A stretch of 64,000 nucleotides of DNA from a virus. Shown here one piece after another: positions 4,420 to 35,586 of this stretch (the stretch's first letter is position 1; every line of letters begins with the position of its first letter). The notes under the pieces are model-generated. The model saw nothing but the letters and a program-made list of their open reading frames with translations. It was not told where the DNA came from and made no database searches. The stretch covers positions 55,412 to 119,411 of the IMG/VR virus record IMGVR_UViG_3300010354_000050. One strand, given 5' to 3'. Made by a program: the position numbers and the translations under genes.

Positions 4420-4620
4420 ATGAAAAAACACCTAGACTTGTTAATCTTTATAACTGTAATAGGAATATCTTCTGCATTGTTGACCATATGGGTTCCTAAA
4501 GTACTTATGCTGGCCCTAGCTACAGCAGCAGTAACTATATTTTTGTTTCAGTATGTCTTGTTTGAATTAGCTTTTAATAAGTCTATGAACAATAATGGAG
4601 AAAAAGATGAAAACAATTAA
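4420..4620 (+). CDS. small 2-TM membrane protein
   Basis: ATG 4420 after AAGGA; LFQYVLFE motif. Confidence 0.65.
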   Translation: MKKHLDLLIFITVIGISSALLTIWVPKVLMLALATAAVTIFLFQYVLFELAFNKSMNNNGEKDENN

Positions 4621-6069: not shown

Positions 6070-8040
6070 ATGGAAGAAAGAATTGAAAATGTTTCCTTAG
6101 TTGAGGAAATGAAAACAGCCTACCTAGACTACTCTATGGCAGTTTTGCTAGGTAGGGCTATTCCCTCACTATATGATGGTCAAAAGCCTGTAAGCCGAAG
6201 AGTTCTAACAGCTATGAAGTGGTTAGGGCTAAATCCTGAAGCCAAGTACATGAAGGCAGCTAGGGTAGAAGGCGAAACCATGGGTAAACTTCACCCCCAT
6301 AGTGGTGCCTATGGAGCCATGGTAACAATGGCTTCCTGGTGGTCAAACAATAACCCTTTAGTCAATGGTCATGGTAACTGGGGATCACCAACAGACAATG
6401 CAGCAGCACCAAGATATACCGAGTGTAAACTAACTCCTTTTGCTTGGGAAGTTTTGCTTCAAGATTCTCAAACATGGGAAACTAAAGACAATTATGACGG
6501 CTCCTTGCAAGAACCTGTTCTACTCAATACTAAATTCCCTGTTGTGCTAGTCAATGGTGGTGAAGGGATTGGAGTAGGGTATTCGACTAAGATCCCCCCT
6601 CATAATCTCAGAAGTTTGGCAAAAGCTTTAAGGTTTGTTTCCGAAGGGAATTTAGTTGGAGCTAATAAGCATCTTTGCCCTGATTTCCCTACAGGTTGCA
6701 ATGTAGTCAAGGATGAAGGTTTGCTAGAATATTTGCAAACTGGAACAGGATCTATTCGCATGAGGGCTTTGTGTGAAGAAGACAAGGTACAGCATGGGAA
6801 GACTAAAAGAAATGCCTTGAACTTTACTAACCTACCTTTACACATCAATACTGAAGCAATTTCTGACCAAATCCGTGAGGGGATTGAAAAAGGAAAAATC
6901 ACTACTGTAGCTGATGTCAGAGATGAAACAGATCGCAGTGGTATCCGGTTAGTTGTTATTTTGAAGACAACGGCTGATATTGAACTAGCAAAATCTGAAT
7001 TATTTAGCTATACTAGCCTAGATTCTAAGTTTTCAGCTAAGAACTTAGTTATTGATGGTCTTGAACCTGTTTGCCTACCTCCCGTAGAAATTCTACAAAA
7101 GTGGCTAAAGTGGAGAGATGTAAAAACTGTTGTTATTTTCTCTGATGAACTTGCAAACATTACTGCAAGATTAGAGATTGTAGAAGGATTGATTAAAGGA
7201 ACTTCTTCTATGGATCAAGTCATTGAACTGATTCGCAGTTCTAATGATCCTAAGTCAGCTAAAGGAAAATTAGTTAAGGAAGGTTTTTCTGACTCCCAAG
7301 CTCAAGCTGTTTTGGCAATGAAGCTAAGCCAACTAACTAAATTAGACGTTAGAGAACTTAAAGGAGAAGAAAAACAAATTAAAGCAAGAGTTAAGCAGCT
7401 AGAAAAGTTGCTAAGCTCTGATCAGGAACGCCTAGTCTATATTCTTGAAGAAGTAGATCAAATTGCTGAGAGGTTTGGGAATGCCCGTCGATCACTAGGA
7501 ATTGAACCTCCTATTTACCTAGTCGATCCTAAAAAATCTACCATTAGCGATGAGGGCAAGGTTGTAAAAAATCGTTACATGAAACTAGATTCTAACAAAG
7601 GGGTTGTTTCCCAGATGAAGACAACCAAAGGATCTAACCTGATTTGTCCTGACGATCAAAAAGCTGTTTTAGTTTGCGACAATGGGTTTGTCTACAAAAT
7701 TGGGTCTAAGTTTCAAGGCCCATTGGCATCTCAATCGACAAAGGTTTTAGCTAAAACCTTGAGTAGCAAAACACCTCTTGACCTTTTAGCTATTTGGAAA
7801 TTAGATGGTTGTCTTTACTCTAATGTGTTAGATTGGGAAACCTTGGCTAAAACAACATCTAGCGGGAAAAGATGGATGCCTGAAGGAGCAGAATTGGTTT
7901 ATTTGGGCAGTAAAGATTGGGAATTGAAGTTTACGTCTAAGCGGAAAAATCCACAAACTATTTCCTTGAAAACCACTAAACCTAGGACATTAGGGAGTAA
8001 AGGTAATAAACTAGCCAGTCTAGATGAAGTTAAAATTTAG
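6070..8040 (+). CDS. gyrA: type IIA topoisomerase subunit A (GyrA/ParC-like)
   Basis: YLDYSM..RAIP..DGQKPV.RR, GKLHPH, catalytic AAAPRYTE, TKIPPHNL, PDFPTG motifs. Confidence 0.92.
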   Translation: MEERIENVSLVEEMKTAYLDYSMAVLLGRAIPSLYDGQKPVSRRVLTAMKWLGLNPEAKYMKAARVEGETMGKLHPHSGAYGAMVTMASWWSNNNPLVNGHGNWGSPTDNAAAPRYTECKLTPFAWEVLLQDSQTWETKDNYDGSLQEPVLLNTKFPVVLVNGGEGIGVGYSTKIPPHNLRSLAKALRFVSEGNLVGANKHLCPDFPTGCNVVKDEGLLEYLQTGTGSIRMRALCEEDKVQHGKTKRNALNFTNLPLHINTEAISDQIREGIEKGKITTVADVRDETDRSGIRLVVILKTTADIELAKSELFSYTSLDSKFSAKNLVIDGLEPVCLPPVEILQKWLKWRDVKTVVIFSDELANITARLEIVEGLIKGTSSMDQVIELIRSSNDPKSAKGKLVKEGFSDSQAQAVLAMKLSQLTKLDVRELKGEEKQIKARVKQLEKLLSSDQERLVYILEEVDQIAERFGNARRSLGIEPPIYLVDPKKSTISDEGKVVKNRYMKLDSNKGVVSQMKTTKGSNLICPDDQKAVLVCDNGFVYKIGSKFQGPLASQSTKVLAKTLSSKTPLDLLAIWKLDGCLYSNVLDWETLAKTTSSGKRWMPEGAELVYLGSKDWELKFTSKRKNPQTISLKTTKPRTLGSKGNKLASLDEVKI

Positions 8041-11031: not shown

Positions 11032-11952
11032 ATGAAAACCATTGACTTTATCAAAACCAGTGAAGGATTTCTAGTAAACCTTCCGGCATCTAGCAGCAAA
11101 TTTATCAATGGTGAAAAACTTCTGCCAACCTTTAACAAAAACTGGTCAAAGGTTAATACTAAGCCAAAGACCTTGACTGAAACTTCTAATAAAGTAGTTG
11201 AACGGGTATGGAAGTTAAAACCCCTGATTTCTGATTTTTCCCAACTTCCAAAAACTCTAGAATACTTTGATTATGATGACATGGAAACCCGTTATCCTGA
11301 TTACGAAGGTTTCTATGAATCCTTTACTACTTATGGAGAAGGAATTAAGGAAGTTGAAGTGCAATTTGTAAAAATTGCAGAGGTTAACCTGGTTCCTGGA
11401 ATTGTCCCCTTCAGCTACCAAACCAAAGATCCCTTCCCTATTACTGAAAAGAGTGTAAAATACCCACTGGTTTCTACCATTACTGTTCCAGATATTTTGC
11501 TACCTGAAACTCCTTGTTTTTTAAGTAGCAGGGAAACCTATGAAATTATTCGGAATTTTGTAAAAAAGAATATTGATCCCAAAGCAGCACAAGTTACTTC
11601 TGATTACGATTTCTGCTTTGAAGTTTCCAAATTAGTAGAACTCCATGAGCCTGAATCTTACCAGGTTGACCTAAACTGGAATAGGAAAAAAGCAAAGCCT
11701 AAATATGAAACTCGATTCAGGACTGATCGAAAAGTAAAATGCTTTTCTATGACCCATGATGAAAGGAATTATGAAGGAAAAAGCAATGGATTCCCTGTAA
11801 TTGAAGGTTTTTCTGCAAATTCTCAAAAGGAACTTAAAGAAAAAATTGACAATTACTTGAAGGAATTGATTGAAAACATCAATAAGCCTTTAGTAGAGTG
11901 CCCTTGCTGTAAAGGTTTAGGAGTTGTTGAAAATCAAGACCTAGTTCAATAA
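11032..11952 (+). CDS. hypothetical protein with C-terminal CxxCxGxG motif
   Basis: 306 aa; TSDYDFCF motif; ECPCCKGLG. Confidence 0.75.
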   Translation: MKTIDFIKTSEGFLVNLPASSSKFINGEKLLPTFNKNWSKVNTKPKTLTETSNKVVERVWKLKPLISDFSQLPKTLEYFDYDDMETRYPDYEGFYESFTTYGEGIKEVEVQFVKIAEVNLVPGIVPFSYQTKDPFPITEKSVKYPLVSTITVPDILLPETPCFLSSRETYEIIRNFVKKNIDPKAAQVTSDYDFCFEVSKLVELHEPESYQVDLNWNRKKAKPKYETRFRTDRKVKCFSMTHDERNYEGKSNGFPVIEGFSANSQKELKEKIDNYLKELIENINKPLVECPCCKGLGVVENQDLVQ

Positions 11953-24126: not shown

Positions 24127-24381
24127 ATGAAAACCCATAAAACCAGGAACGGGAAATTTATTCCTATAAGTAAACTAGAAGACGATCATTTGCTTAACAT
24201 TATCAGGTTTTACCAGAGAAAAGCAAAAGAAGGTCTTTTAGTTTGCTATAGGAGTCCTAGTTTGCATGACAGTTTCGATGACCATTTCTTTGACATTGTT
24301 TATGGAGAAGAAGCCTTAGAAAACCTAGGGTATTATTTCTATGTTGAAGAAGCTGAAAAAAGATTCAGGAGTAATAAATGA
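24127..24381 (+). CDS. hypothetical phage protein
   Basis: T-x-x-G-x-x-I-x-I-x-x-L-x-D-x-HL-x-N family-like motif. Confidence 0.65.
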   Translation: MKTHKTRNGKFIPISKLEDDHLLNIIRFYQRKAKEGLLVCYRSPSLHDSFDDHFFDIVYGEEALENLGYYFYVEEAEKRFRSNK

Positions 24382-24839
24382 TTAAATATATCAAAAAAGG
24401 CAACATCTTTGAGTCCAACTGTGAAGCCCTAGTTAACCCTGTCAATACTGTGGGGGTAATGGGAGCGGGTTTAGCCAAACAATTTAAAAAAAGGTATCCA
24501 AAAAACTTTGTAGCATACCAAGACTACTGTAACCAAGGAAAGCTAAAACCAGGTGGAGTCTTTGTTTTCCTGGAAGAAGGTGACATTATTGTTAACCTGG
24601 CAACCAAAGACCACTGGAAAGATCCTTCTGAAGTTGACTATGTTGAAAAAGGGTTGCAGCAACTTTTGCAGTTTATCCAAATTCAAGAAGTTGTATCAGT
24701 GGCTATCCCTGCCTTAGGATGTGGTCTTGGTGGTCTAGACTGGGCTGATAACGTTCTTCCTTTAATTGAGTATTACTTCCAAGACAATGAAGAAGTAAGC
24801 AATGTGGAAGCAAAGGTTTATGTTCCCTACGGTTATTGA
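24378..24839 (+). CDS. macrodomain ADP-ribosylglycohydrolase (DarG-like)
   Basis: GNIF..ALVNPVNTVGVMGAGLA.QFK, N-x-x-TK-x-HW, AIPALGCGLGGLDW. Confidence 0.88.
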   Translation: MIKYIKKGNIFESNCEALVNPVNTVGVMGAGLAKQFKKRYPKNFVAYQDYCNQGKLKPGGVFVFLEEGDIIVNLATKDHWKDPSEVDYVEKGLQQLLQFIQIQEVVSVAIPALGCGLGGLDWADNVLPLIEYYFQDNEEVSNVEAKVYVPYGY

Positions 24840-25889: not shown

Positions 25890-25999
25890 TCAACTTTAAT
25901 AAAAACACTAAGAACCTTAAAAAAAGGTTCTTTTTTTTATTGACTTGGAGTACAAAGGCTGTTAGAATAGAAAAGAAAGCTAGAAAGAAGTAGAAAAAA

Positions 26000-26254
26000 A
26001 TGGAAAAAGTAACACTATATACTAATCTAGACTACATAATTTTTCCTAAATATGAGTCCAAATTTCCCCCCCCCCCGATTGGTAGTTACATCTTGTGTTC
26101 CACTAGTAATCCCAGCAGAAAAGCAAAGCTTGAAGTTATGCAACTGACTTATGATGAAAAAGGATGGAAAGCTGAGTTGCACATTCCCTCTTTAGTTTTA
26201 GAAAGAATGTCTGTTAAGCAGTGGTACAAACAATACCTAGGAGTAGATATTTAG
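26000..26254 (+). CDS. hypothetical protein
   Basis: ORF after terminator-promoter; abuts polymerase start. Confidence 0.6.
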   Translation: MEKVTLYTNLDYIIFPKYESKFPPPPIGSYILCSTSNPSRKAKLEVMQLTYDEKGWKAELHIPSLVLERMSVKQWYKQYLGVDI

Positions 26255-27874
26255 ATGAAACTTAACCCTATTGGTTATCCTGTAATCTCTGACCAAACTT
26301 TTTCTAAAGTTTTTGGAGAATTCACTAAAAGGTCAATTCCCACATCTACAGAAAAAACTAGAAAACTTCTTCAGGCAAACACTATTCCTTTTCCTGTAGA
26401 CTACCCTGAAAACTTATTTGATGGGGAATTACCTTTTCCAGATCTTAAAGCAAAAACTTTGGATCAACATTTTGAAAAAATTGCTGAAGATTTTGTAGGC
26501 CAATATTTGCAAGATGCCGAAACTTTAGCTACTTGTAAAATCCCACCCATCCCACCTATTCAAGAACTTGTTCCCGAAGTAGGCTGGACAAAATATACTT
26601 TTGAAAATGAAACATGGATTAAAGAACCTGTCCCCTACCCTTTAGAATCTGGGATATTTGATACTGAAACTTTTGTAGAAGGTGGGGCTTTCCCAGTTAT
26701 TGGTACTGCTTTAACCCATAAAGCTGCCTACATCTGGTTAGCTTCTGAATTTGTTAACCCTGATCTCCCTGTAGAGCAATGGGATCAATTTGGGCTAATT
26801 CCCTTAGGAACTGACAAGTTCATTATTGGTCATAATATTTCCTATGATAGAGTTAGGGTTCAAGAAGCATACAACCTTACCAACAATTTACCAGAAAACT
26901 TCTACTTCGATACCCTTTCTGCACATATTGGTGTATCCGGGTTGGCTTCTGGTCAACGTTGGCTCTATGTTCTAGCAGCAAAAGACCCAGATTCCCTTAC
27001 TGAACAAGAAAAGCGCCAACTACGCTTTTCTCCTAAATGGGCTTCTGAAGGAAGTACAAACTCCTTGATTGAAACCTATAACTTCCATGTAGCTGCACCC
27101 AAAGAACTTTTTCAAGATGGAGATTTTAGGTTAAAGGAATCTGATAAGGAAGTCAGGGATTTGTTTGTAAAAGCAAAAACCATGAAGGAGTTGGCTAACC
27201 CCTCTGATTTCTACAAACTAATCGACTACGCGATTAAGGACGTTTTCTATACTTTTGAGCTATATCAAGCCCTATGGCCTAAGTACAGAGAATCTACTCC
27301 TAGTACAGTAGCCTTAGCAGGTCATTACTTTTTAGCAGGCTCTAAGATTCCCCTTGTTGACAACTGGGAAAGTTGGATTGATAAAACTGAAGAAGTTTTT
27401 CAAGCTCAAATGGAAGAAATGGATCAGATTTGCAAAGACCTAATGAAAACCCATGTAGAAGAATGGGGGAAAGAGTTAGACAAAGATCTGCTACAAATTT
27501 CCTATAGGTTTGAAGAAGAACCTGAAAAATTAGTAGAAGAAGTTGGTTTGCAGAAAAAGAAAACTGTAAAGCTAACTGATGTTTTGAAAGCACTAGATAA
27601 ACTAGAAATTGAATGGAGGTTTAACTCTAAACAGTGGGCTGAACAAGACCCCTGGCTAAAACAGCTAGATTGGACACCGCAAAACTACACAGGAAAGTTT
27701 GCCTTTATGCCTAAGTGGGCTTGTAAATTTTTAGCTGAACCTGAAAAGAATAAGTTTTCAGTTAAAAACCGTGCTGCCCATTTACTCCTTAAACTAAAGT
27801 GGGAAGGAAAGCCTATCTTATGGGTTGACGGTCAAGGCTGGTGCTTTGAAGTAGAAGATGAAGCTGATGCTTAA
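26255..27874 (+). CDS. Pol-gamma-like family A DNA polymerase, N-terminal half (3'-5' exonuclease + spacer)
   Basis: ExoI FDTE, ExoII GHNISYDR, FDTLSAHIGVSG, ExoIII YAIKDV, DPWLKQLDW, L-x-W-x-G-x-P...GWCF collinear with POLG/Mip1. Confidence 0.9.
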   Translation: MKLNPIGYPVISDQTFSKVFGEFTKRSIPTSTEKTRKLLQANTIPFPVDYPENLFDGELPFPDLKAKTLDQHFEKIAEDFVGQYLQDAETLATCKIPPIPPIQELVPEVGWTKYTFENETWIKEPVPYPLESGIFDTETFVEGGAFPVIGTALTHKAAYIWLASEFVNPDLPVEQWDQFGLIPLGTDKFIIGHNISYDRVRVQEAYNLTNNLPENFYFDTLSAHIGVSGLASGQRWLYVLAAKDPDSLTEQEKRQLRFSPKWASEGSTNSLIETYNFHVAAPKELFQDGDFRLKESDKEVRDLFVKAKTMKELANPSDFYKLIDYAIKDVFYTFELYQALWPKYRESTPSTVALAGHYFLAGSKIPLVDNWESWIDKTEEVFQAQMEEMDQICKDLMKTHVEEWGKELDKDLLQISYRFEEEPEKLVEEVGLQKKKTVKLTDVLKALDKLEIEWRFNSKQWAEQDPWLKQLDWTPQNYTGKFAFMPKWACKFLAEPEKNKFSVKNRAAHLLLKLKWEGKPILWVDGQGWCFEVEDEADA

Positions 27875-28049
27875 AAACCTGTTTTCTATTGCAATTGAAT
27901 AGTTTGGTTGAAAAAATCAGGATAGTGATGATGATGGAATATCTCAGACAGTCTTAGGCTTTATTAGTTCATTTGTTCCTTCAAAACCTGAATCAAGAGT
28001 TTATGCTAGAATTAACCCTTGGTAATGTCATGTAACCCTGACATTGAAT

Positions 28050-28078
28050 AAGAAACCTTTTCAGGTTTCTTTTTTTTT
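28050..28078 (+). terminator. intrinsic terminator between polymerase halves
   Basis: AAGAAACC-TTTTCA-GGTTTCTT + T tract. Confidence 0.75.
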
Positions 28079-28132
28079 GTTGATATAGGTAAACTGTTCC
28101 TATACAATAGGATTGTAGATAAGATTTCAATC

Positions 28133-28468
28133 ATGTTTAACCTATATGTTTGCCTTCCACCTATTACTGGCGTAGTTCTAGCTTATGTCTTCAGGAACCT
28201 AGGGCTATATCAATTTCAATTTCTGTCTTTGTTTGGAGTTTACCTGTATTACTTGTGCTTCAATTTGGTTTTCTTCAGGAAACTTAGAGGAGCCCGAATA
28301 ACCCTCACAGGATTACTTTCTTTCATATACCTTGTACTCAGTTTTCTCTTTCCTGTTTACCATCAAATACCTGAACAACTCTTGGCTGTAGAAAGAGTAA
28401 TCCTTTTAGCTGATTTCAGAGAAAACCTTTACAAGGTTTCCTTTTTTATTCTTTGTAGAACTACCTAA
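28133..28468 (+). CDS. membrane protein inserted between polymerase halves
   Basis: several hydrophobic segments; own promoter-like sequence. Confidence 0.55.
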   Translation: MFNLYVCLPPITGVVLAYVFRNLGLYQFQFLSLFGVYLYYLCFNLVFFRKLRGARITLTGLLSFIYLVLSFLFPVYHQIPEQLLAVERVILLADFRENLYKVSFFILCRTT

Positions 28469-28499
28469 ACAGTAAAAAAGCAAGTAGCTAATGAATTTC

Positions 28500-28528
28500 T
28501 TGACAACTAACATATACTAGGTTAAAAT
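28500..28528 (+). promoter_or_regulatory. sigma70 promoter upstream of polymerase C-half
   Basis: TTGACA-N17-TAAAAT. Confidence 0.7.
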
Positions 28529-28722
28529 AGAAATGTGTACTTCAGGAGCAAGTAATGTTTAAGTGCAAATGCTTTCTTTATGCTGATGACGAATATTTTA
28601 CAGATATTACCCTCAAAGTAAAGCCAGTGCAAAACAATAACTTACATTGTTGAATCTGTAGTTATCCACCCCTACGGCCTAGATGACTATGATTTCACAC
28701 TGTCCCTTTCTGATTATTAAGC

Positions 28723-30027
28723 ATGAAAAAATCTATTAAAAGAATACCCCACCCTAGCGGAAAAGATGAAAATGTAGGAGGATTGTTTTCTAAAGAATTT
28801 ATTGTAGATATGGAAGTTGGAAGGCTCTCTAGCGATAGTCCATTAGCCCAACGTGCTATTGATATTGCCAACAGTACCTCCTATTGGAACTCTATTAGGA
28901 AGAGGGTTACAGAAAGGATCTACGTACCTACAGAAAACCCACTAGATAGTGACAACAAAGCCAATATCACTATCCCTAACATTCTCCCCCATGGCACCGT
29001 TACCAGAAGAACTGTAGAACCTATGATGGTTACAATGTGTTCTACAAAGCCAAATAGGATAGGTACAGAACTTAAGACAAGGATCAAAGCCCCTAAAGGT
29101 TGGAAAATTGTAGGTGCTGACTTTGACGGTCAAGAGTTACAAATTGCTTCTACCTATGCTGACAAGTGGGAAGGTGGGTTCATTGGAGCTTCTCCTATGA
29201 CCTACATTATTCTAGCAGGTAGTAAGGATAAAGGTACAGATGCCCATACCTTGCTATCTAAGAAAATCAATACAGATAGAGATACGGCTAAGGGTGTAGG
29301 CTTTGCTATCTTGTATGGTGCTGGTTCATTAACTATTGCTAACACTATCAAGAAAAAGTTCAAAGATCGTCATGAAGCTGAACTAAGAGGTTTTGGTGAA
29401 GAGGCAATTAAGTTCAAGAAAGGTTTGAAAGATTCTGAAGGTTACTACTATGGTGGAACCGATTCAGGTTGCTACAATTTCATGGAAAACATTGCCTTAC
29501 GTTCCAGAATCCCTACTTTACCTTGTCTAAAAACTAAAATTTCTACTGCATTGAGGCCAAATGTAGTCGATAATAAATTTGTTACAGGTAGGGTCAACTG
29601 GACTATTCAGGCTTCGGGTGCAGAAGTTTTATCTATTTTCCTAACTTCCGTTCACTGGTTAGCAAGTTATTTCAAGATTCCTGCCCAATTCATCATCAGT
29701 ATCCATGATGAGACTTGGTTCATGGTTCCTGAAAAGTTTGCTGAGCAATTTTGTGTCATCTTTCAAATGGCCCATTTGTATACCTGGTCAAGGTTTCATT
29801 ATGGTGTAGGAATTAATGATCTCCCCCTTAGTCGAGCATTCTTTTCTTCAGTAGCTATTGATGAGAGGATCAGGAAAACACCAAAAGAAAAAACTATTAC
29901 TCCCTCCCACCCTGAAGGAATTAATGAACCCTCTGGTGAAGAATTTTCTATGAAGCAAATGGATGAACTTGGTTGGGTGAAGAAGTTAGGAACAAGAAAA
30001 CAGCTTATTGAAAAAGGAATTTTGTGA
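28723..30027 (+). CDS. Pol-gamma-like DNA polymerase, C-terminal polymerase half
   Basis: IPHPSG..NVG, GTVTRRTVE, motif A VGADFDGQEL, motif B RDTAK..FAILYGAG, RVNWTIQASG, motif C ISIHDE, AFFSSV-x-ID. Confidence 0.93.
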   Translation: MKKSIKRIPHPSGKDENVGGLFSKEFIVDMEVGRLSSDSPLAQRAIDIANSTSYWNSIRKRVTERIYVPTENPLDSDNKANITIPNILPHGTVTRRTVEPMMVTMCSTKPNRIGTELKTRIKAPKGWKIVGADFDGQELQIASTYADKWEGGFIGASPMTYIILAGSKDKGTDAHTLLSKKINTDRDTAKGVGFAILYGAGSLTIANTIKKKFKDRHEAELRGFGEEAIKFKKGLKDSEGYYYGGTDSGCYNFMENIALRSRIPTLPCLKTKISTALRPNVVDNKFVTGRVNWTIQASGAEVLSIFLTSVHWLASYFKIPAQFIISIHDETWFMVPEKFAEQFCVIFQMAHLYTWSRFHYGVGINDLPLSRAFFSSVAIDERIRKTPKEKTITPSHPEGINEPSGEEFSMKQMDELGWVKKLGTRKQLIEKGIL

Positions 30028-30263
30028 TGAAGAACACAATAAAAATTGGCCCTTATTTAGTTTGTTTTGAAACTAACCCTGGTGGAATAGGGAAACTTTT
30101 CTACTTCTATCAGCCTAATGATCCACCAACCAAGCAAAAATTAGCTTTTGCTATAACTATTTTAGAAAGAATTTATGTCGGAGAAGAAGATACAGGACTA
30201 GAAGTTCATCAAGCTTTACAAATACTTCTTCTAGGTCTTTGCTTGACAATTGCTAAGATCTAA
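30024..30263 (+). CDS. hypothetical protein
   Basis: overlaps polymerase stop. Confidence 0.5.
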   Translation: MMKNTIKIGPYLVCFETNPGGIGKLFYFYQPNDPPTKQKLAFAITILERIYVGEEDTGLEVHQALQILLLGLCLTIAKI

Positions 30264-30291
30264 ACCGTTGTTGTCTATTAACTTAAACAAG

Positions 30292-30879
30292 ATGTCTAAA
30301 CTACTCATTGTTGTATCTGGCCCTGATCGTGTAGGGAAATCGACTTTAATTGACACTTTAATGTTTTATAAGGGTTTTTCTGCTAAAAACTTTTATGTAA
30401 AACACCATAGCAAACCGCCGCTAGATTATGATAATGTCTATGACTATCACAAAGATAGTGTCAAAGGTTGGCTTGAATCGGGTAAGCAATATGCAATTTT
30501 CGACCGTTCCTGGCCTTGCACCTACATTCTGGAACGTCTAAGGGATGGAAATACAGGCCATTTTGATCAACTTATTGATTTTGAAATTGAATTGTACGAT
30601 TTGATGGAGAAGAAAGAAGCAAAAGTTGTTCACCTAGGTATTACAAAACCTTGGCATTGGTCTGGGCCACATCATTTGAAGGAACTCAGGGAGTTTTACG
30701 GATCAGATAAGAAAAGAGCAATTAGGGATAACTACATTGTTAGGATGCAAGAACATGAAAATTATTTGTCAGAATTGGTAAATTTCTGTAATCAAATTAC
30801 ACTTTTCCCATCCTTGTTTCTAGAATTTCCTGAGGTAAATGAAGTTTGGGATTCAATCTATAATACTATTGGTAGTTAA
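30292..30879 (+). CDS. P-loop dNMP/thymidylate kinase-like protein
   Basis: VSGPDRVGKST P-loop; FDRSW motif. Confidence 0.75.
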   Translation: MSKLLIVVSGPDRVGKSTLIDTLMFYKGFSAKNFYVKHHSKPPLDYDNVYDYHKDSVKGWLESGKQYAIFDRSWPCTYILERLRDGNTGHFDQLIDFEIELYDLMEKKEAKVVHLGITKPWHWSGPHHLKELREFYGSDKKRAIRDNYIVRMQEHENYLSELVNFCNQITLFPSLFLEFPEVNEVWDSIYNTIGS

Positions 30880-32317: not shown

Positions 32318-32404
32318 TTTAGAAACTTTCAATTAACTACTTGACATTAGTAAAGTTCTTTGCTATAGTAGTTATGTAGTTGAAAAAAAAGGGGGAATAA
32401 GCCC

Positions 32405-32650
32405 ATGATGATCTACAACCCTTCTATTGCCAATCCTGAAGCCGATCTTTCTCAAATTCCTGCATTTATTTTAGAAGATGGGGGAACGGTTTACTGGAAT
32501 GCTCTTGACAAAGAGCAGTGTAAGGAATTTTTTGATTATGCTATGGGGTATATCTGGCAAGACAATGTAGGGTCTACTATGGCTTGCGAAATCCTTGGTT
32601 GCCTAGAAGACACTTATCCTGATTGGGTAGAGGAATTTGAAAATTTGTAA
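32405..32650 (+). CDS. hypothetical protein
   Basis: promoter TTGACA(32341); terminator follows. Confidence 0.65.
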   Translation: MMIYNPSIANPEADLSQIPAFILEDGGTVYWNALDKEQCKEFFDYAMGYIWQDNVGSTMACEILGCLEDTYPDWVEEFENL

Positions 32651-32762
32651 ATAATCTAAAAGGAGACTTAAGTAAGTCTCCTTTTTTTATTCATGGGTTT
32701 GTTGGTTGACAATAAACTAATAATGTTTTACAATAGGAAAAGTTAAGCAAAAGGCAATTCAG

Positions 32763-33020
32763 ATGGAATACCAAGAACCCTTGTTTAGTATGTATGAAGA
32801 GTTAGAACAAGCTAAAACAGTTTATTCTGAACCTTTTGAAATTTTCCTTGTTGAAGCTGTTGAGTACCAAAATTCTGAAGGAGAAATCCAATATGATGCT
32901 GCAATTTTTAATTGGGATGCAGTAATCAAGAGTAGGGCTAAAGGTTTTAACTCCTTACCTGAATGCTTAGAAGCTCTGGCAGAAACCCAGTATGCCAAAT
33001 TAATTGGTTGGGTGCCATGA
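32763..33020 (+). CDS. hypothetical protein (paralog of 33102..33356)
   Basis: shared EAVEY...GFNSLPECLEALAE. Confidence 0.7.
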   Translation: MEYQEPLFSMYEELEQAKTVYSEPFEIFLVEAVEYQNSEGEIQYDAAIFNWDAVIKSRAKGFNSLPECLEALAETQYAKLIGWVP

Positions 33021-33101
33021 GGTTGTTGTAATCTTTAGCAATCTTTTTCAACTCTAATACACTACATACAGTAAGCTTAATTTATAAACAGTGGGATTTT
33101 T

Positions 33102-33356
33102 ATGATCTGTGAAATTTACAGGGATAACTTTGAAATTTATGTTATTGAAGCTGTAGAGTATGAAGATGGGGAAGGAAAACTCAAATATTATTCTAAGTTT
33201 ACTACTCAAGAAGGAGTACCTATGTGTGAAGCAGTAGGTTTTAACTCCTTACCTGAATGCTTAGAAGCTCTAGCAGAGATTTCTATTATCAAAGGAATCG
33301 GGTGGAAACCTTTAAGAAATTTTAGTGGACATTTTTCTAAAAGTGTAGTAGAATAA
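33102..33356 (+). CDS. hypothetical protein (paralog of 32763..33020)
   Basis: shared motif and near-identical DNA block. Confidence 0.7.
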   Translation: MICEIYRDNFEIYVIEAVEYEDGEGKLKYYSKFTTQEGVPMCEAVGFNSLPECLEALAEISIIKGIGWKPLRNFSGHFSKSVVE

Positions 33357-33384
33357 GATCAGTTAAGCAAAAGGAATACAACCA

Positions 33385-33606
33385 ATGGCCCACACAATTA
33401 CTTTTGAAGATGTTAAAGGTTTCCACAATGTTGTAGACCTTGCAGGGAGTTTTGGAAAAGACTCAAACAAAAAGCTTCAGGCTATCTTGAACCTGAATGA
33501 AGATGGAACTTTGGGATATAAGTTCCAAGTAAAGAGTAATAAGGAAGTTCAAGTCTCTACAGAAAACCTGTATCAGGCTGTATCCGTTTATAACAGCTTG
33601 CCCTAA
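33385..33606 (+). CDS. hypothetical protein
   Basis: AAGGA RBS. Confidence 0.65.
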   Translation: MAHTITFEDVKGFHNVVDLAGSFGKDSNKKLQAILNLNEDGTLGYKFQVKSNKEVQVSTENLYQAVSVYNSLP

Positions 33607-33666
33607 ACTACATCGGGGAAACTCCTTGAGGAGTTTCCCCCTATTTAATCCCTAGGCTTTTATCTT

Positions 33667-34104
33667 ATGAATCTATTACCCGGAATGATTTTTGAAATTG
33701 ACGGTTCTCTGTGGGAATTTAGCTGTAATTACTTCCATGAAGCTGAATTTATAAATCCCACTAAACCATACAAGCTAAGTTTTTCCTTCAAGGATGAATT
33801 CAGTAAGGAAAAGGTTGAAAGTGTAAAAGGTCTTGACAACTACAAACTCATCTTTCACCCTAACCAAGAAATCTACAACAAGTTTGAACAGATTGGTGAA
33901 AATCCTGAAATTGAAGAAGAAGGGGTTGAAACTATGTCTTATTTTTCTTTATTACGTAGTGATCTGGAAATTTACAGAGATAAATCTGGAAGCTTTGTTT
34001 TCTGCTATGTTTCAGGAGATGAAAATCATGAAATTAAATTTGATTTAGTTAATTCCTTAAAAGATTTGAATGATTGGGTTTTTGACATAATTGTAGGTAA
34101 TTGA
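33667..34104 (+). CDS. hypothetical protein
   Basis: ORF track. Confidence 0.65.
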   Translation: MNLLPGMIFEIDGSLWEFSCNYFHEAEFINPTKPYKLSFSFKDEFSKEKVESVKGLDNYKLIFHPNQEIYNKFEQIGENPEIEEEGVETMSYFSLLRSDLEIYRDKSGSFVFCYVSGDENHEIKFDLVNSLKDLNDWVFDIIVGN

Positions 34105-34105
34105 A

Positions 34106-34363
34106 ATGAAACTATACTCGGTTGAACGGAATTACAGAGAAAAGAGATATGTATCTTTTCCTAATCCAGCAGAATATGTTGTGGATAGAGCCTTATCTGG
34201 AGGCTCTGAATCTGAACAGTTAGTAAAAATCAGAGGTCTTATCTCCATCTTAACTGACAAACTTCTAGATGCAGGTTTACTAGAGCTAGAAGAGATTAAA
34301 TATCTCTTTGAAGATAGCCCTGATGGCCCCTTCTACAAAACAAAAGAAGAGGCAGACAAATGA
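34106..34363 (+). CDS. hypothetical protein
   Basis: operonic with upstream ORF. Confidence 0.65.
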   Translation: MKLYSVERNYREKRYVSFPNPAEYVVDRALSGGSESEQLVKIRGLISILTDKLLDAGLLELEEIKYLFEDSPDGPFYKTKEEADK

Positions 34364-34617
34364 AATAACCTTCTTCAAGGTTAATTTCAAAGAAAAGAGC
34401 TTGGCTATAAGTTCCTTTTTTTATTGGAAAGTTTACTTACCTTGACAAAAATTGAGAAAATGAACACCATGCCTTAGCAGATGCCCAGTGAAATAAAGGA
34501 GCTTGGGGTTTATGTCTAAGTTTAGTTGAAAGAATGATAAGTAAACTTTGTGAAAAAATAGTTGACAACCTTTAGCTAATCTGGTATACTACATGTAGTT
34601 GAGTTTGGAAATTGCCA

Positions 34618-34869
34618 ATGGCTACTGTATTTACTAAAGAAATCCCCGCCACCTATCAAGAAGAATGGGAAACCGGAGAGTACTACCAGGCTATTACAGA
34701 ATTTGGACTAGAGTTTGGTAAAGGAGTATTTACCATTTACCAGAATGGAACTTGCCCTCTGAACTTCCCTTCTTTCTGTAGCGTAGAAAGGGAAAAATAC
34801 CCCCTTCACCTTCAACGGGCTAATAGAGCTTATGAAATTGCTACTGAAATCCTGGTAGCAAATATGTAA
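34618..34869 (+). CDS. hypothetical protein
   Basis: promoter TTGACA(34562)-N17-TATACT; terminator follows. Confidence 0.65.
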   Translation: MATVFTKEIPATYQEEWETGEYYQAITEFGLEFGKGVFTIYQNGTCPLNFPSFCSVEREKYPLHLQRANRAYEIATEILVANM

Positions 34870-35196
34870 AACAGTAGAATTAGAAAAAGAAGGGAGATTT
34901 CTCCCTCCTTTTTTTATTGACAAAAATCTTTTCCCAAGTTAAAGCAGGACTATTCCTACATTTAGAATCCTCAAAGAACTAATAGATAAGTTTGCCAAGC
35001 TTGTTAGTCAGTTAGTTAGTAAATCAACATTACTTTTCAGGTAGGCTCTAGTAGCCTACCTTTTTTTTATTAAGGAAGATGCTCAAGCTTATTGGCTAAG
35101 AAGGTAGTCTTAGAATTAGTCTAGGCTTTCTTATTCTGATACTCATTGCTAAGTTGGTAAGGGGTAAATTTCTATTAAATTCTAATATGGTTTCAA

Positions 35197-35586
35197 ATGG
35201 CTAAAACAAGAATTTGGCAAGAAGGAGATAGTTGGTCAAAGGTTGCCTATTTAGAAACCTTTGATTCAAGAAATTTTAGGAAAATCTTAAAACTAAACCC
35301 TAGTTTTGACATTAGAACTTACCCAGCACCAGGAGTTCCAATTTTAGTAAGTCAATCTGGAGTAGGTTCAAAAGGCGTAGGAACTATCAACCAACTTGAT
35401 CTAACATTAGACCTGAGAAGATCAAATTCAAATTCCAACCTAAGAGATAGCATCTATCCTTGGGAAACGCTTTCAGAATTTACCTCAAGATTAACTGAAT
35501 ATACAGCCGCAGCACTTCTACAATCAGATAGAACCAACGGATTTAGTCTAGATTCACCCCAAGCACTAAGGGGGCCAAGAAAATAA
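35197..35586 (+). CDS. LysM/tail-X-like baseplate protein
   Basis: EGDSWSKVA...I-x-x-LNP...PG-x-x-I-x-V pattern; first gene of structural module. Confidence 0.6.
   Translation: MAKTRIWQEGDSWSKVAYLETFDSRNFRKILKLNPSFDIRTYPAPGVPILVSQSGVGSKGVGTINQLDLTLDLRRSNSNSNLRDSIYPWETLSEFTSRLTEYTAAALLQSDRTNGFSLDSPQALRGPRK

Follow-up and report, generated by a model that had tools for sequence, protein, structure and literature searches.

Probable fission of a Pol gamma-like DNA polymerase gene in an uncultured relative of cyanophage S-CBWM1

Two genes for a Pol gamma-like polymerase

We analysed 64,000 nucleotides of a virus record from IMG/VR (IMGVR_UViG_3300010354_000050), a stretch referred to as a whole as the window. 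Within it, the catalytic core of a family A DNA polymerase is not one polypeptide, as it is encoded by two open reading frames (ORFs) that lie in different frames and are separated by 848 bp (Table 1). The upstream ORF (N-half) ends with GWCFEVEDEADA followed by its stop codon, and the downstream ORF (C-half) begins with MKKSIKRIPHPSG. In Pfam searches the N-half matches the mitochondrial polymerase exonuclease family DNApol_Exo (PF18136; residues 59-344, 7.2e-57, 193 bits), while the C-half matches DNA_pol_A (PF00476; 1.9e-11). Beyond the 3'-5' exonuclease domain, the N-half continues for approximately 195 residues that comprise the spacer and the N-terminal polymerase region.

The Exo I-III motif residues D136, E138, D198 and D329 of the N-half are invariant in alignment A3 and align to Pol gamma chains in a search of the PDB. 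In the C-half, residues D133, D135, R186, K190, Y198, H328, D329 and E330 are invariant in alignment A4, as are the stretches GADFDGQE, RDTAK..ILYGAG and SIHDE, which align to Pol gamma and which we take to be family A motifs A, B and C. The N-half stops 8 residues past GWCF and the C-half starts 7 residues ahead of IPHPSG; the distance between GWCF and IPHP in fused relatives is 9 residues, so that the gain at the new ends is only about 6 residues overall. Aligned with the fused polymerases of phages S-CBWM1 and S-TIM5, the halves line up collinearly and meet to within a few residues, and in fused relatives the position of N-half residue 535 is followed, two codons on, by that of C-half residue 5. 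The break falls within the spacer that links the exonuclease domain to the polymerase domain, at a short turn on the surface (the ...DE-G-K-L.K-IPHP loop). An earlier note on this DNA had placed the break there, with all exonuclease and polymerase motifs retained, and alignments A3 and A4 bear this out.

For each half, the PDB search at E<=0.01 gives 14 matches, every one of them to Pol gamma, as the earlier note's identification of a Pol gamma-like enzyme would lead one to expect. When the threshold is relaxed to E<=10, two Pol I chains come next, with E-values of 0.013 and 0.015, compared with 7e-70 for Pol gamma. The affinity of the halves thus appears to be with Pol gamma more than with Pol I or T7-type polymerases. 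The closest isolate is Synechococcus phage S-CBWM1 (43% identity for the N-half and 51% for the C-half), which shares with the window a gyrA-like gene upstream of the polymerase. The enzymes of cyanophages A-HIS1/2, S-TIM5, S-CBWM1 and Mic1 and mitochondrial POLG/Mip1 carry the same PF18136 and PF00476 signature and the same motif order as the window. However, all of these are single polypeptides, whereas the window has two genes.

The record is a metagenome assembly, and a chimeric or misassembled stretch might have joined the two halves while the true gene is continuous. In the likely source run, a single contig spans the whole stretch with 0 differences, and runs from two other studies yield identical short contigs that cross the N-half stop into the start of the gap, or lie inside the gap. 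The split is also kept in a diverged relative, an approximately 93%-identical contig from a fourth study. Moreover, near-identical stand-alone halves with the same ends recur from several sources in a protein collection (P0001, 98% identity, 434 aa; P0125 and P0126, 97% and 95%, 539 aa). We consider the probability of an assembly artefact to be negligible. The 24 sequencing runs that contain the stretch are all DNA.

Table 1. Features of the split polymerase locus (positions within the window)
Feature	Position	Strand	Description
Terminator-like hairpin 25910-25932 and promoter-like site 25940-25968	25910..25968	+	Upstream module
N-half, Pol gamma-like polymerase	26255..27874	+	539 aa; ORF list, Pfam, alignment
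Intervening DNA	27875..28722	+	848 bp; no intron match, no endonuclease gene
First terminator-promoter module	28050..28108	+	9-bp hairpin and T-run (28050-28071+), then TTGATA-17-TACAAT (28080-28108)
Hydrophobic ORF, 111 aa	28133..28468	+	Three hydropathy segments; 4 homologues
Second terminator-promoter module	28420..28528	+	Hairpin and T-run 28420-28442 (one stem mismatch); TTGACA-17-TAAAAT (28500-28528)
32-codon ORF	28555..28653	+	AGGAG 7 nt upstream; inside predicted 5' leader of C-half
C-half, Pol gamma-like polymerase	28723..30027	+	434 aa; thumb, palm, fingers; motifs A, B, C

The DNA between the halves

The gap holds the terminator, membrane-protein ORF and sigma70-type promoter that had been reported for it. 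The promoter-like site of the second module matches 11 of 12 consensus positions and is predicted to be the promoter of the C-half; run X6 retains the stretch 28497-28627, with 5 differences over its 131 bases. The terminator-promoter module ahead of the C-half is a generic one that is repeated across the genome, where a promoter match lies no more than 110 nt from 19 of 28 plus-strand clusters of hairpin and T-run, compared with a baseline of 8%. The module upstream of the N-half is of this genome-wide type and would start a transcription unit containing ORF 26000-26254 and the N-half. A Shine-Dalgarno-like motif is absent upstream of the C-half, and is present for only 18 of 51 long plus-strand ORFs.

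The 111-aa ORF belongs to a conserved family of small membrane proteins of 143-144 aa, of which it is a copy truncated at the C-terminus. The cassette that holds it (28046-28496) is replaced by a 33-letter stretch in the approximately 93%-identical contig, where the split and the promoter are kept. In the X6 relative the 32-codon ORF contains extra letters, which makes it doubtful that this ORF is a gene. Neither ORF matches a Pfam or PHROGs family, the membrane-ORF family has no match in IMG/VR, and a search of the ESM Atlas with P0121 gave no usable match. BLAST comparison of the gap with the genome and with all loci returned only short chance matches, with no endonuclease remnant and no similarity to other gaps, and no HNH match was found in the whole 119-kb record. 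A blastn search of a phage collection with the region gave no DNA-level match.

An arrangement in which the encoded halves abut with almost no residues lost or gained, and in which an ORF cassette occupies the centre of the gap, the usual place of ORFs in introns (and is dispensable in one relative), could reflect a self-splicing group I or group II intron. Splicing, perhaps with the cassette looped out, would then restore a single polymerase mRNA. This is the situation described for Mic1, whose polymerase gene is interrupted elsewhere, after motif A, by a sequence that PMC7156551 calls an intron. An Rfam search with permissive filters recovered a group I intron in the Mic1 homologue as a positive control (L002, 5809-6081; RF00028, 45.5 bits, E 1.2e-8). 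However, it gave 0 matches at E<=10, RF00028 included, across positions 27600-29000 of the window, and the same search of relatives L079 and L061 also found no match. In addition, relative L085 (C-half identity 87%, N-half identity 78%, with synteny downstream) has its halves in one frame with TAA followed directly by ATG and no other DNA between them; therefore, removal of the insert does not restore one ORF. The gap also carries two intrinsic-terminator-like hairpins along with promoters of the genome-wide module type, and the X6 relative has one-base indels within it. Its predicted RNA fold is ordinary (z -1.49 with 20 shuffles), as is that of the C-half leader (z -1.38). On this evidence an intron is very improbable, in agreement with the earlier note, which had seen neither intron nor intein.

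An intein or split intein was rejected, since the 8 residues after GWCF and 7 before IPHP, compared with the 9 between these motifs in fused relatives, leave no room for one; a Pfam search found no intein or Hint family at E<=0.1. Fractured genes that combine split inteins with an endonuclease between the halves have been described (Dassa et al. 2009, PMC2677866). These resemble relative L079, in which an endonuclease ORF also lies between two ORFs of one enzyme. However, they contain intein halves, which the window lacks. Ribosomal read-through or bypass was likewise rejected for the window, given the different frames, the 848-bp separation, the many intervening stops and the absence of extra residues.

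Constraint on the halves and a model of their association

Comparison of the window with L085 yielded pN of 0.10 and pS of 0.72 for the C-half (ratio approximately 0.04, 431 codons), and pN of 0.14 and pS of 0.78 for the N-half (331 codons). Both halves have therefore been under strong purifying selection since the window and L085 diverged. These values bear on whether the locus is a decaying pseudogene, or has one working half, with replication carried out by a host polymerase or by one encoded in the 44% of the genome that is unsequenced. Interruption by inserted DNA is what one usually sees in a pseudogene, the membrane-protein ORF within the gap is truncated too, and the record is estimated to be only 56% complete. 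In contrast, the selection on both halves has persisted over a divergence that saturates synonymous sites, every catalytic residue is retained, and at least four members of the split clade, from different sources, have both halves intact. Furthermore, the 119 kb of the record that were searched contain no second family A polymerase gene. Loss of function thus seems highly unlikely.

A predicted complex of the two halves reached an ipSAE of 0.88 (median of three runs), compared with 0.00 for the best control; this mark is attained by 58 of 80 solved complexes and by 2 of 110 mismatched pairs. At least 94% of the contacts agree between runs, and the partner pLDDT is at least 86. The new termini (N-half 526-535 and C-half 1-8) lie within the modelled interface, and the roughly 195 N-half residues past the exonuclease domain interlock with the C-half. 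The model supports association of the halves, although it may draw on memory of solved single-chain Pol gamma structures. Taking selection and the model together, the best reading is a two-chain enzyme, as the earlier note had suggested with its heterodimer. A 539-aa chain of exonuclease plus spacer and a 434-aa polymerase chain would be translated separately and would reassemble, with no splicing of RNA or protein, into a single enzyme folded like single-chain Pol gamma.

Two refinements of the heterodimer are not supported. The N-half had been cast as a stand-alone proofreading subunit, which is at odds with the interlocking of its additional residues with the C-half in the model. The subunits had also been thought to be independently regulated, but the promoter ahead of the C-half belongs to a generic module and the halves of L085 abut at a TAA-ATG junction; therefore, separate regulation is not a conserved property.

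Fission of a family A polymerase into two adjacent genes is reported for the T7-like cyanophage S-SBP1, where a frameshift produces overlapping ORFs at the boundary between exonuclease and polymerase (Czernecki et al. 2023, PMC10201439). As with the window, the predicted structure of that type reassembles the parent fold; its new termini are described there as loose. Unlike that case, the break in the window belongs to the Pol gamma cluster, lies far past the exonuclease domain at what appears to be a site of mobile elements, and separates ORFs that do not overlap.

Distribution and origin of the split

Among 80 loci from IMG/VR, 77 are fused, one is split at this site, one is split elsewhere and one is cut by a contig end. 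Metagenome loci (n=44) comprise 20 fused, 1 split and 23 uninformative examples, and 65 hits to the N-half include 18 stand-alone and 42 fused proteins. A FastTree phylogeny of 149 C-halves contains 45 split, 96 fused and 8 unlabelled sequences, a set in which split forms are over-represented owing to the length limit applied in the protein search. Reconstruction on this tree gives 17 changes between split and fused states, at least 9 of which are forced by starred branches. The four rows of the window's clade are all split (support 100). Representatives at 50% identity are mostly fused or eukaryote-length proteins, and because a fused 964-aa protein stands for the cluster that includes the window, this set cannot be used to count split forms.

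Split forms are common in aquatic metagenomes. This had escaped the earlier note, as had the relatives with a homing endonuclease at the same site. Stand-alone forms in the protein collection include many C-halves of 429-430 aa and N-halves of 488-511 aa. The split state is derived and scattered among fused phage relatives. Consequently, the proposed relevance to the origin of Pol gamma falls away, and the split has no bearing on the origin of the mitochondrial enzyme.

Phage genes split by free-standing homing endonucleases are well known, and include nrdA with mobE in Aeh1, genes 39 and 60 with mobA in T4, and gene 43A/43B in Aeromonas phages 25 and 44RR. In these systems, as in the window, an essential replication enzyme that is continuous in relatives is encoded by two ORFs, and the halves are expected to reassemble without splicing. 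Gene 43A/43B encodes a family B polymerase, whereas that of the window is of family A and Pol gamma type. The window's gap differs in containing terminator-promoter modules and a small membrane-protein gene instead of an endonuclease, and one member of its clade has a bare stop-start. Phage 44RR is described as having an untranslated intercistronic spacer in place of the endonuclease (PMC2988022), which resembles the window's gap.

In L079, a free-standing HNH ORF (PF01844 at 22.5 bits, cut-off 21.4; phrog_655 homing endonuclease) lies between the halves at the same codon position as the break in the window, and its stop overlaps the ATG of the C-half. The flanking exon sequences, approximately 120 nt upstream and 18 nt downstream, cannot be aligned with a 93-95%-identical fused relative, as would be expected of the co-conversion typical of homing. 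L079 is the one locus with an endonuclease at the break site that was examined at the DNA level. Its HNH protein matched only its own contig in IMG/VR, where degenerate DNA patterns for a C-half start of MGWKK.PHP also recovered only that contig and those for M(S/T)WKKIPHP recovered none. The L079 insert has no similarity to the window's gap.

Our principal reading, to which we assign a probability of roughly 0.8, is that the window carries a true fission of the gene for a Pol gamma-like family A replicative polymerase, at a target site of mobile DNA and yielding a two-chain enzyme, in an uncultured phage related to S-CBWM1. The break site would be a recurrent target of mobile DNA, as exemplified by the endonuclease gene of L079, and a hot spot for mobile elements would be expected to produce the scatter of split forms seen over the tree. 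Within the clade of the window, the split would be ancestral and would have outlived any endonuclease, leaving in one member only the TAA-ATG junction. In the window's own lineage, the junction would have become ordinary intergenic space with two standard terminator-promoter modules and a variable, truncated membrane-protein gene; therefore, the C-half is predicted to use its own sigma-70-type promoter. As the window's gap bears no trace of an endonuclease, an endonuclease origin for this clade is an inference. The same loop accommodates approximately 37 extra residues in yeast-type and approximately 122 in animal Pol gamma chains in PDB alignments, and so insertions may be tolerated at this point of the Pol gamma fold in general.

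The fission could instead have arisen by a small mutation that created a stop and a start, the state seen in L085, with no mobile element involved. The junction would later have filled passively with cassettes in the window's lineage, and the endonuclease of L079 would be an unrelated late arrival in a tolerant loop. L085 indeed has no intervening DNA and the window has no endonuclease remnant, and endonuclease-free fission is documented for T7-like cyanophage polymerases (PMC10201439). A seg endonuclease of T4-type phages may have entered an already split gene 43 (PMC2988022). However, breaks at this one codon position occur in many separate lineages, with at least 9 changes, and a site-specific mobile element explains this recurrence more easily than repeated point events; the replaced flanks of L079 are likewise typical of homing. 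We regard the mutational origin as rather unlikely, and it would alter only the origin of the split and not the mechanism of the present enzyme. On a further reading, to which we give somewhat less than even odds, the spacer loop is a homing-endonuclease hot spot that has repeatedly (at least 9 changes) converted a single-chain polymerase into a two-subunit one. In the window's clade, the endonuclease would then have been lost and the split made permanent, with a TAA-ATG scar in one member, and the junction would have matured into a true intergenic region that carries a terminator and a promoter of its own as well as small genes open to exchange.

A search of the literature, supplements aside, turned up no description of a Pol gamma-like phage polymerase that is split within its spacer or in association with an endonuclease; split Pol gamma-like entries might be present in the sequence lists that accompany PMC10201439 or in the ORF table from PMC7156551.

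The locus offers a new example, from an uncultured freshwater phage, of a known route by which phage enzymes come to be made in two pieces. 'Genes in pieces' are known for the T4-type family B polymerase, ribonucleotide reductase and topoisomerase, and the finding extends them to Pol gamma-like family A polymerases. As the split form is common in aquatic metagenomes, gene callers and polymerase-based surveys of diversity will miscount or truncate this marker. The break point is an interruption-tolerant loop of the Pol gamma fold, which would be useful for engineering split polymerases. The series from fused, to endonuclease-split, to bare stop-start, to separate (predicted) transcription units represents a testable route from a single chain to a heterodimer. 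If the hot-spot reading is true, these loci would form a natural stepwise record of selfish DNA creating a multi-subunit enzyme.

A Pol gamma-like polymerase in two open reading frames

The virus record comprises 119,411 bp, is estimated to be 56% complete, and has the window as its final 64 kb. In this region we identified a polymerase resembling the mitochondrial enzyme Pol gamma that is encoded by two open reading frames (ORFs), the N-half and the C-half, separated by 848 bp. The N-half matches the mitochondrial-polymerase exonuclease domain over residues 59–344 (Pfam PF18136, 7.2e-57), and the C-half matches the family A polymerase domain (PF00476, 1.9e-11). The first part of the 954-position polymerase profile PHROG 22619 is matched by the N-half and the last part by the C-half. 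For each half, all 14 of the distinct PDB sequences matched at E ≤ 0.01 were the Pol gamma catalytic subunit; a search relaxed to E ≤ 10 added, as the next best, two Pol I chains (E 0.013–0.015, versus 7e-70 for Pol gamma). Catalytic residues of both the exonuclease and the polymerase are all invariant in a 25-row alignment for each half. The nearest isolate is Synechococcus phage S-CBWM1 (43% in the N-half), and further close isolates are the S-TIM5 group, Acaryochloris phages A-HIS1/2, and Microcystis phage Mic1. The ORFs together with the Pfam, PHROG and PDB matches uphold, as written, the claim of an earlier note that a Pol gamma-like gene is present here as two ORFs.

Features of the polymerase region (window positions)
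Feature	Position	Strand	Description
N-half	26255..27874	+	539 aa, C-terminal end ...GWCFEVEDEADA, then stop
C-half	28723..30027	+	434 aa, N-terminal start MKKSIKRIPHPSG
Predicted module 1 of gap	28050-28108	+	
Predicted module 2 of gap	28420-28528	+	
Predicted third module	25910-25968	+	upstream of small ORF abutting N-half

An assembly artefact is excluded by contigs from other studies and by stand-alone proteins with the same ends. A single contig from the likely source run spans 25900–30300 with 0 differences, and runs from two other studies contain identical short contigs across the N-half stop (27714–27949) and within the gap (28474–28624 and 28140–28290). A fourth study yielded a 5,029-bp contig, about 93% identical, in which both halves and the split are kept. 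Among the sequencing runs listed as containing the stretch, none was of RNA. Stand-alone C-halves found elsewhere with the same ends are P0001 (98%, 434 aa) and P0002 (87%, 431 aa), and the corresponding N-halves, of 539–540 aa, are P0125 (97%), P0126 (95%) and P0127 (75%).

The surroundings of the polymerase are a phage replication and anti-defence region, then a Mu-like head and baseplate module (Mu-type portal, capsid protein, baseplate J). Nearby are genes for a DNA methylase and an RNA ligase; a gyrA-like gene (6070–8040; PF00521, 2.9e-108), which lies upstream of the polymerase, likewise in S-CBWM1; a 306-aa ORF (11032–11952) matching the Gabija anti-defence protein Gad1 (PF25705, 3.6e-66); and, directly upstream of the polymerase unit, a macro-domain protein (24378–24839; PF01661, 6.3e-17).

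The break and the DNA that fills it

In relatives with the polymerase in one ORF (fused), two codons lead from N-half residue 535 to C-half residue 5, and a codon-level comparison gives nine residues from GWC(F/Y) to IPHP (e.g. H-D-E-N-G-K-L-T-K). In the window, GWCF is followed by eight residues and IPHP preceded by seven, a total gain of about six. Intein halves would need far more, and no intein family was matched in Pfam, in agreement with the prior remark that intein hallmarks were not seen. N-half residues 463–536 align to 403–488 of the solved chain 9c51_A and C-half residues 7–413 to 526–947, and in chain 9g74_A the points corresponding to the break are 588 and 711. These alignments place the break in the spacer, at a loop in which the mitochondrial chains have additional residues, about 37 in 9c51_A and about 122 in 9g74_A. 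The loop tolerates extra sequence, since the fused phage relative L107 has an insertion of about 25 residues exactly there (L107 about 4440–4500). A break within the spacer that keeps the catalytic motifs, as first described, is confirmed by the chain alignments and the invariant residues.

The gap contains two predicted copies of a module in which a G+C-containing hairpin with a T-run is followed within about 10–80 nt by TTGAC(A/T/C)-N16–18-TAnnnT. Such modules are spread over window 1–36000 and the upstream record on the + strand, cut the early/replication region into many short predicted units, and are reminiscent of the promoter-stem-loop cassettes of T4-type phages. A promoter match lies within 110 nt of 19 of the 28 perfect-stem hairpin clusters on the + strand, versus 8% for random positions; on the - strand, 3 of 10 clusters have one.

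Between the two gap modules sits a 111-aa ORF. Its four homologues (143–144 aa, 62–79% identical) have an acidic C-terminal third that it lacks, and three hydrophobic segments are kept. Two homologues lie on contigs of 26,508 and 12,742, the same sizes as contigs carrying polymerase halves that are 95–98% identical to ours, and thus probably occupy the same gap. Because these two are just 62–64% identical, cassette exchange appears to outpace polymerase evolution. The contig from the fourth study has 33 other letters in place of 28046–28496; on visual inspection these make a hairpin followed by a T-run. It retains the promoter stretch 28497–28627 with 5 differences, and an ORF-bearing version occurs on low-depth contigs from that run. 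The predicted terminator and promoter are therefore conserved in the gap of this lineage, and the ORF is accessory. The gap does hold the terminator, membrane-type ORF and promoter previously assigned to it, as predicted modules and a hydrophobic ORF. The predicted C-half leader also includes a 32-codon ORF (28555–28653) with a strong AGGAG and no family match; because the fourth-study contig has extra letters inside it, conservation at the protein level is unlikely.

A self-splicing intron in the gap was considered and rejected. An Rfam scan of 27600–29000 with permissive filters (E ≤ 10) gave no intron family among its seven weak matches, and the RNA fold of the gap is no better than expected (z -1.49). 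As a positive control, the same scan was run on three relatives. In Mic1 (L002), whose polymerase gene is annotated as two CDS, it matched a group I intron model full-length (L002 5809–6081, 45.5 bits, E 1.2e-8), just below the gathering score of 50; the gaps of relatives L079 and L061 gave no match. The Mic1 gene is an interrupted Pol gamma-like gene already in print; its interruption, which lies at a site different from the window's, is described as a 298-bp intron (PMC7156551). Our match supports that term, which is unexplained in the same text.

Most telling is the metagenome contig L085, which is syntenic over several downstream genes and shares 87% identity with the window's C-half and 78% with its N-half. 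Its halves lie in one frame, with TAA followed directly by ATG and nothing else between, so the clade would make two polypeptides regardless of the insert. The earlier remark that intron hallmarks were not seen is thus sustained. Elsewhere, window 30028–30291, following the C-half, is DNA additional to L085 (including a 79-aa ORF, 30024–30263), and 32320–35197 is different from and longer than its L085 counterpart; several small insertions are present in the window's lineage and absent from L085.

The same note had proposed independently regulated proofreading and polymerase subunits. This is unsupported: the N-half holds far more than an exonuclease, the promoter before the C-half is the phage's generic module, and the genes abut in the sister lineage L085.

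Split and fused genes among relatives

In the IMG/VR locus L079, the polymerase gene is interrupted at the same turn by a 709-nt gap. The ORF that fills this gap encodes 227 aa, has an HNH motif (PF01844, 22.5 bits; cut-off 21.4), matches phrog_655, 'homing endonuclease', at 1.8e-6, and ends with a stop that overlaps the C-half ATG. L079 and the fused locus L082 share 95% and 93% DNA identity on the two sides of the break. The two cannot be aligned over about 120 nt leading up to the N-half stop, nor over about 18 nt following the C-half start; we infer that these flanks reflect co-conversion during homing. L061 is split at a second site (L061 8086–8811), within the polymerase domain near C-half residue 178, and its gap has a 155-aa ORF whose similarity to an HNH family is weak (phrog_10820, 0.002).

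In the protein collection, many stand-alone C-halves of 429–430 aa start MGWKK(V/I)PHPKG, as in L079; other starts are MSWKKIPHPKG, MAWKQIPHPKG and MKELKQIPHPSA. Among 65 hits, 18 are stand-alone N-halves (488–550 aa) and 42 are fused proteins, and several N- and C-half pairs lie on equal-sized contigs (e.g. 24,466, 14,482 and 11,021). Three distant relatives (P0201, P0220, P0311; 35–39% identical, 470–583 aa), in which the C-half match begins about 30 residues from the N-terminus, are possible additional examples of stand-alone halves, from other lineages.

Searches with no length limit show that the fused state is the norm. The gene is fused in 77 of 80 IMG/VR loci (one split here, one split elsewhere, one at a contig end) and in 20 of 44 metagenome loci, versus one split, with 23 uninformative.

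A tree was computed with FastTree from 149 C-half sequences, of which 45 are split, 96 fused and 8 unlabelled. Excluded were the window's own loci, loci with a match falling short of residues 8–425, identical duplicates, and any protein that lacked the PHP motif or had under 415 residues beyond it. The split state needs 17 changes, at least nine of them forced by starred branches, versus a mean of 38 for shuffled labels; since the length limits of the protein search favoured split sequences, these counts indicate scatter rather than frequency. The window, P0001, L085 and P0002 form one clade, all split, with support 100. The suggested relevance to the origin of Pol gamma is unsupported, since the split state is a derived one whose occurrences are dispersed among fused genes of phages.

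For T7-like cyanophages, exo/pol fission in a polymerase of family A has been reported as the first such case (PMC10201439), and nrdA, topoisomerase and the family B gene 43 of T4-type phages are endonuclease-split, with an untranslated spacer variant in phage 44RR (review, PMC2988022). In the literature, supplements aside, we found no spacer-located, endonuclease-associated split of a Pol gamma-like polymerase.

Selection on the two halves and their predicted assembly

Between the window and L085, pN is 0.10 over 431 codons of the C-half (ratio about 0.04) and 0.14 over 331 codons of the N-half, with pS saturated (0.72 and 0.78, respectively). These values mark purifying selection, and since both lineages are split, it was the split gene that it acted on. 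The 119 kb of the 56%-complete record contain no further polymerase gene of family A.

Complex prediction used alignments for both halves, three runs and three controls. The median ipSAE was 0.88, versus 0.00 for the best control; among solved complexes, 58 of 80 attain this mark, as do 2 of 110 among mismatched pairs. At least 94% of contacts are shared between runs, partner pLDDT is at least 86, and the approximately 468 predicted contacts include N-half 346–396 and 503–535 and the new termini. This supports the heterodimer proposed at the outset, with the caveat that the predictor may have reproduced solved Pol gamma structures, which are single chains of this fold. What the prediction demonstrates is the ability of the two chains to restore the parent fold, not their binding. 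Overall, a two-chain enzyme is the best reading.
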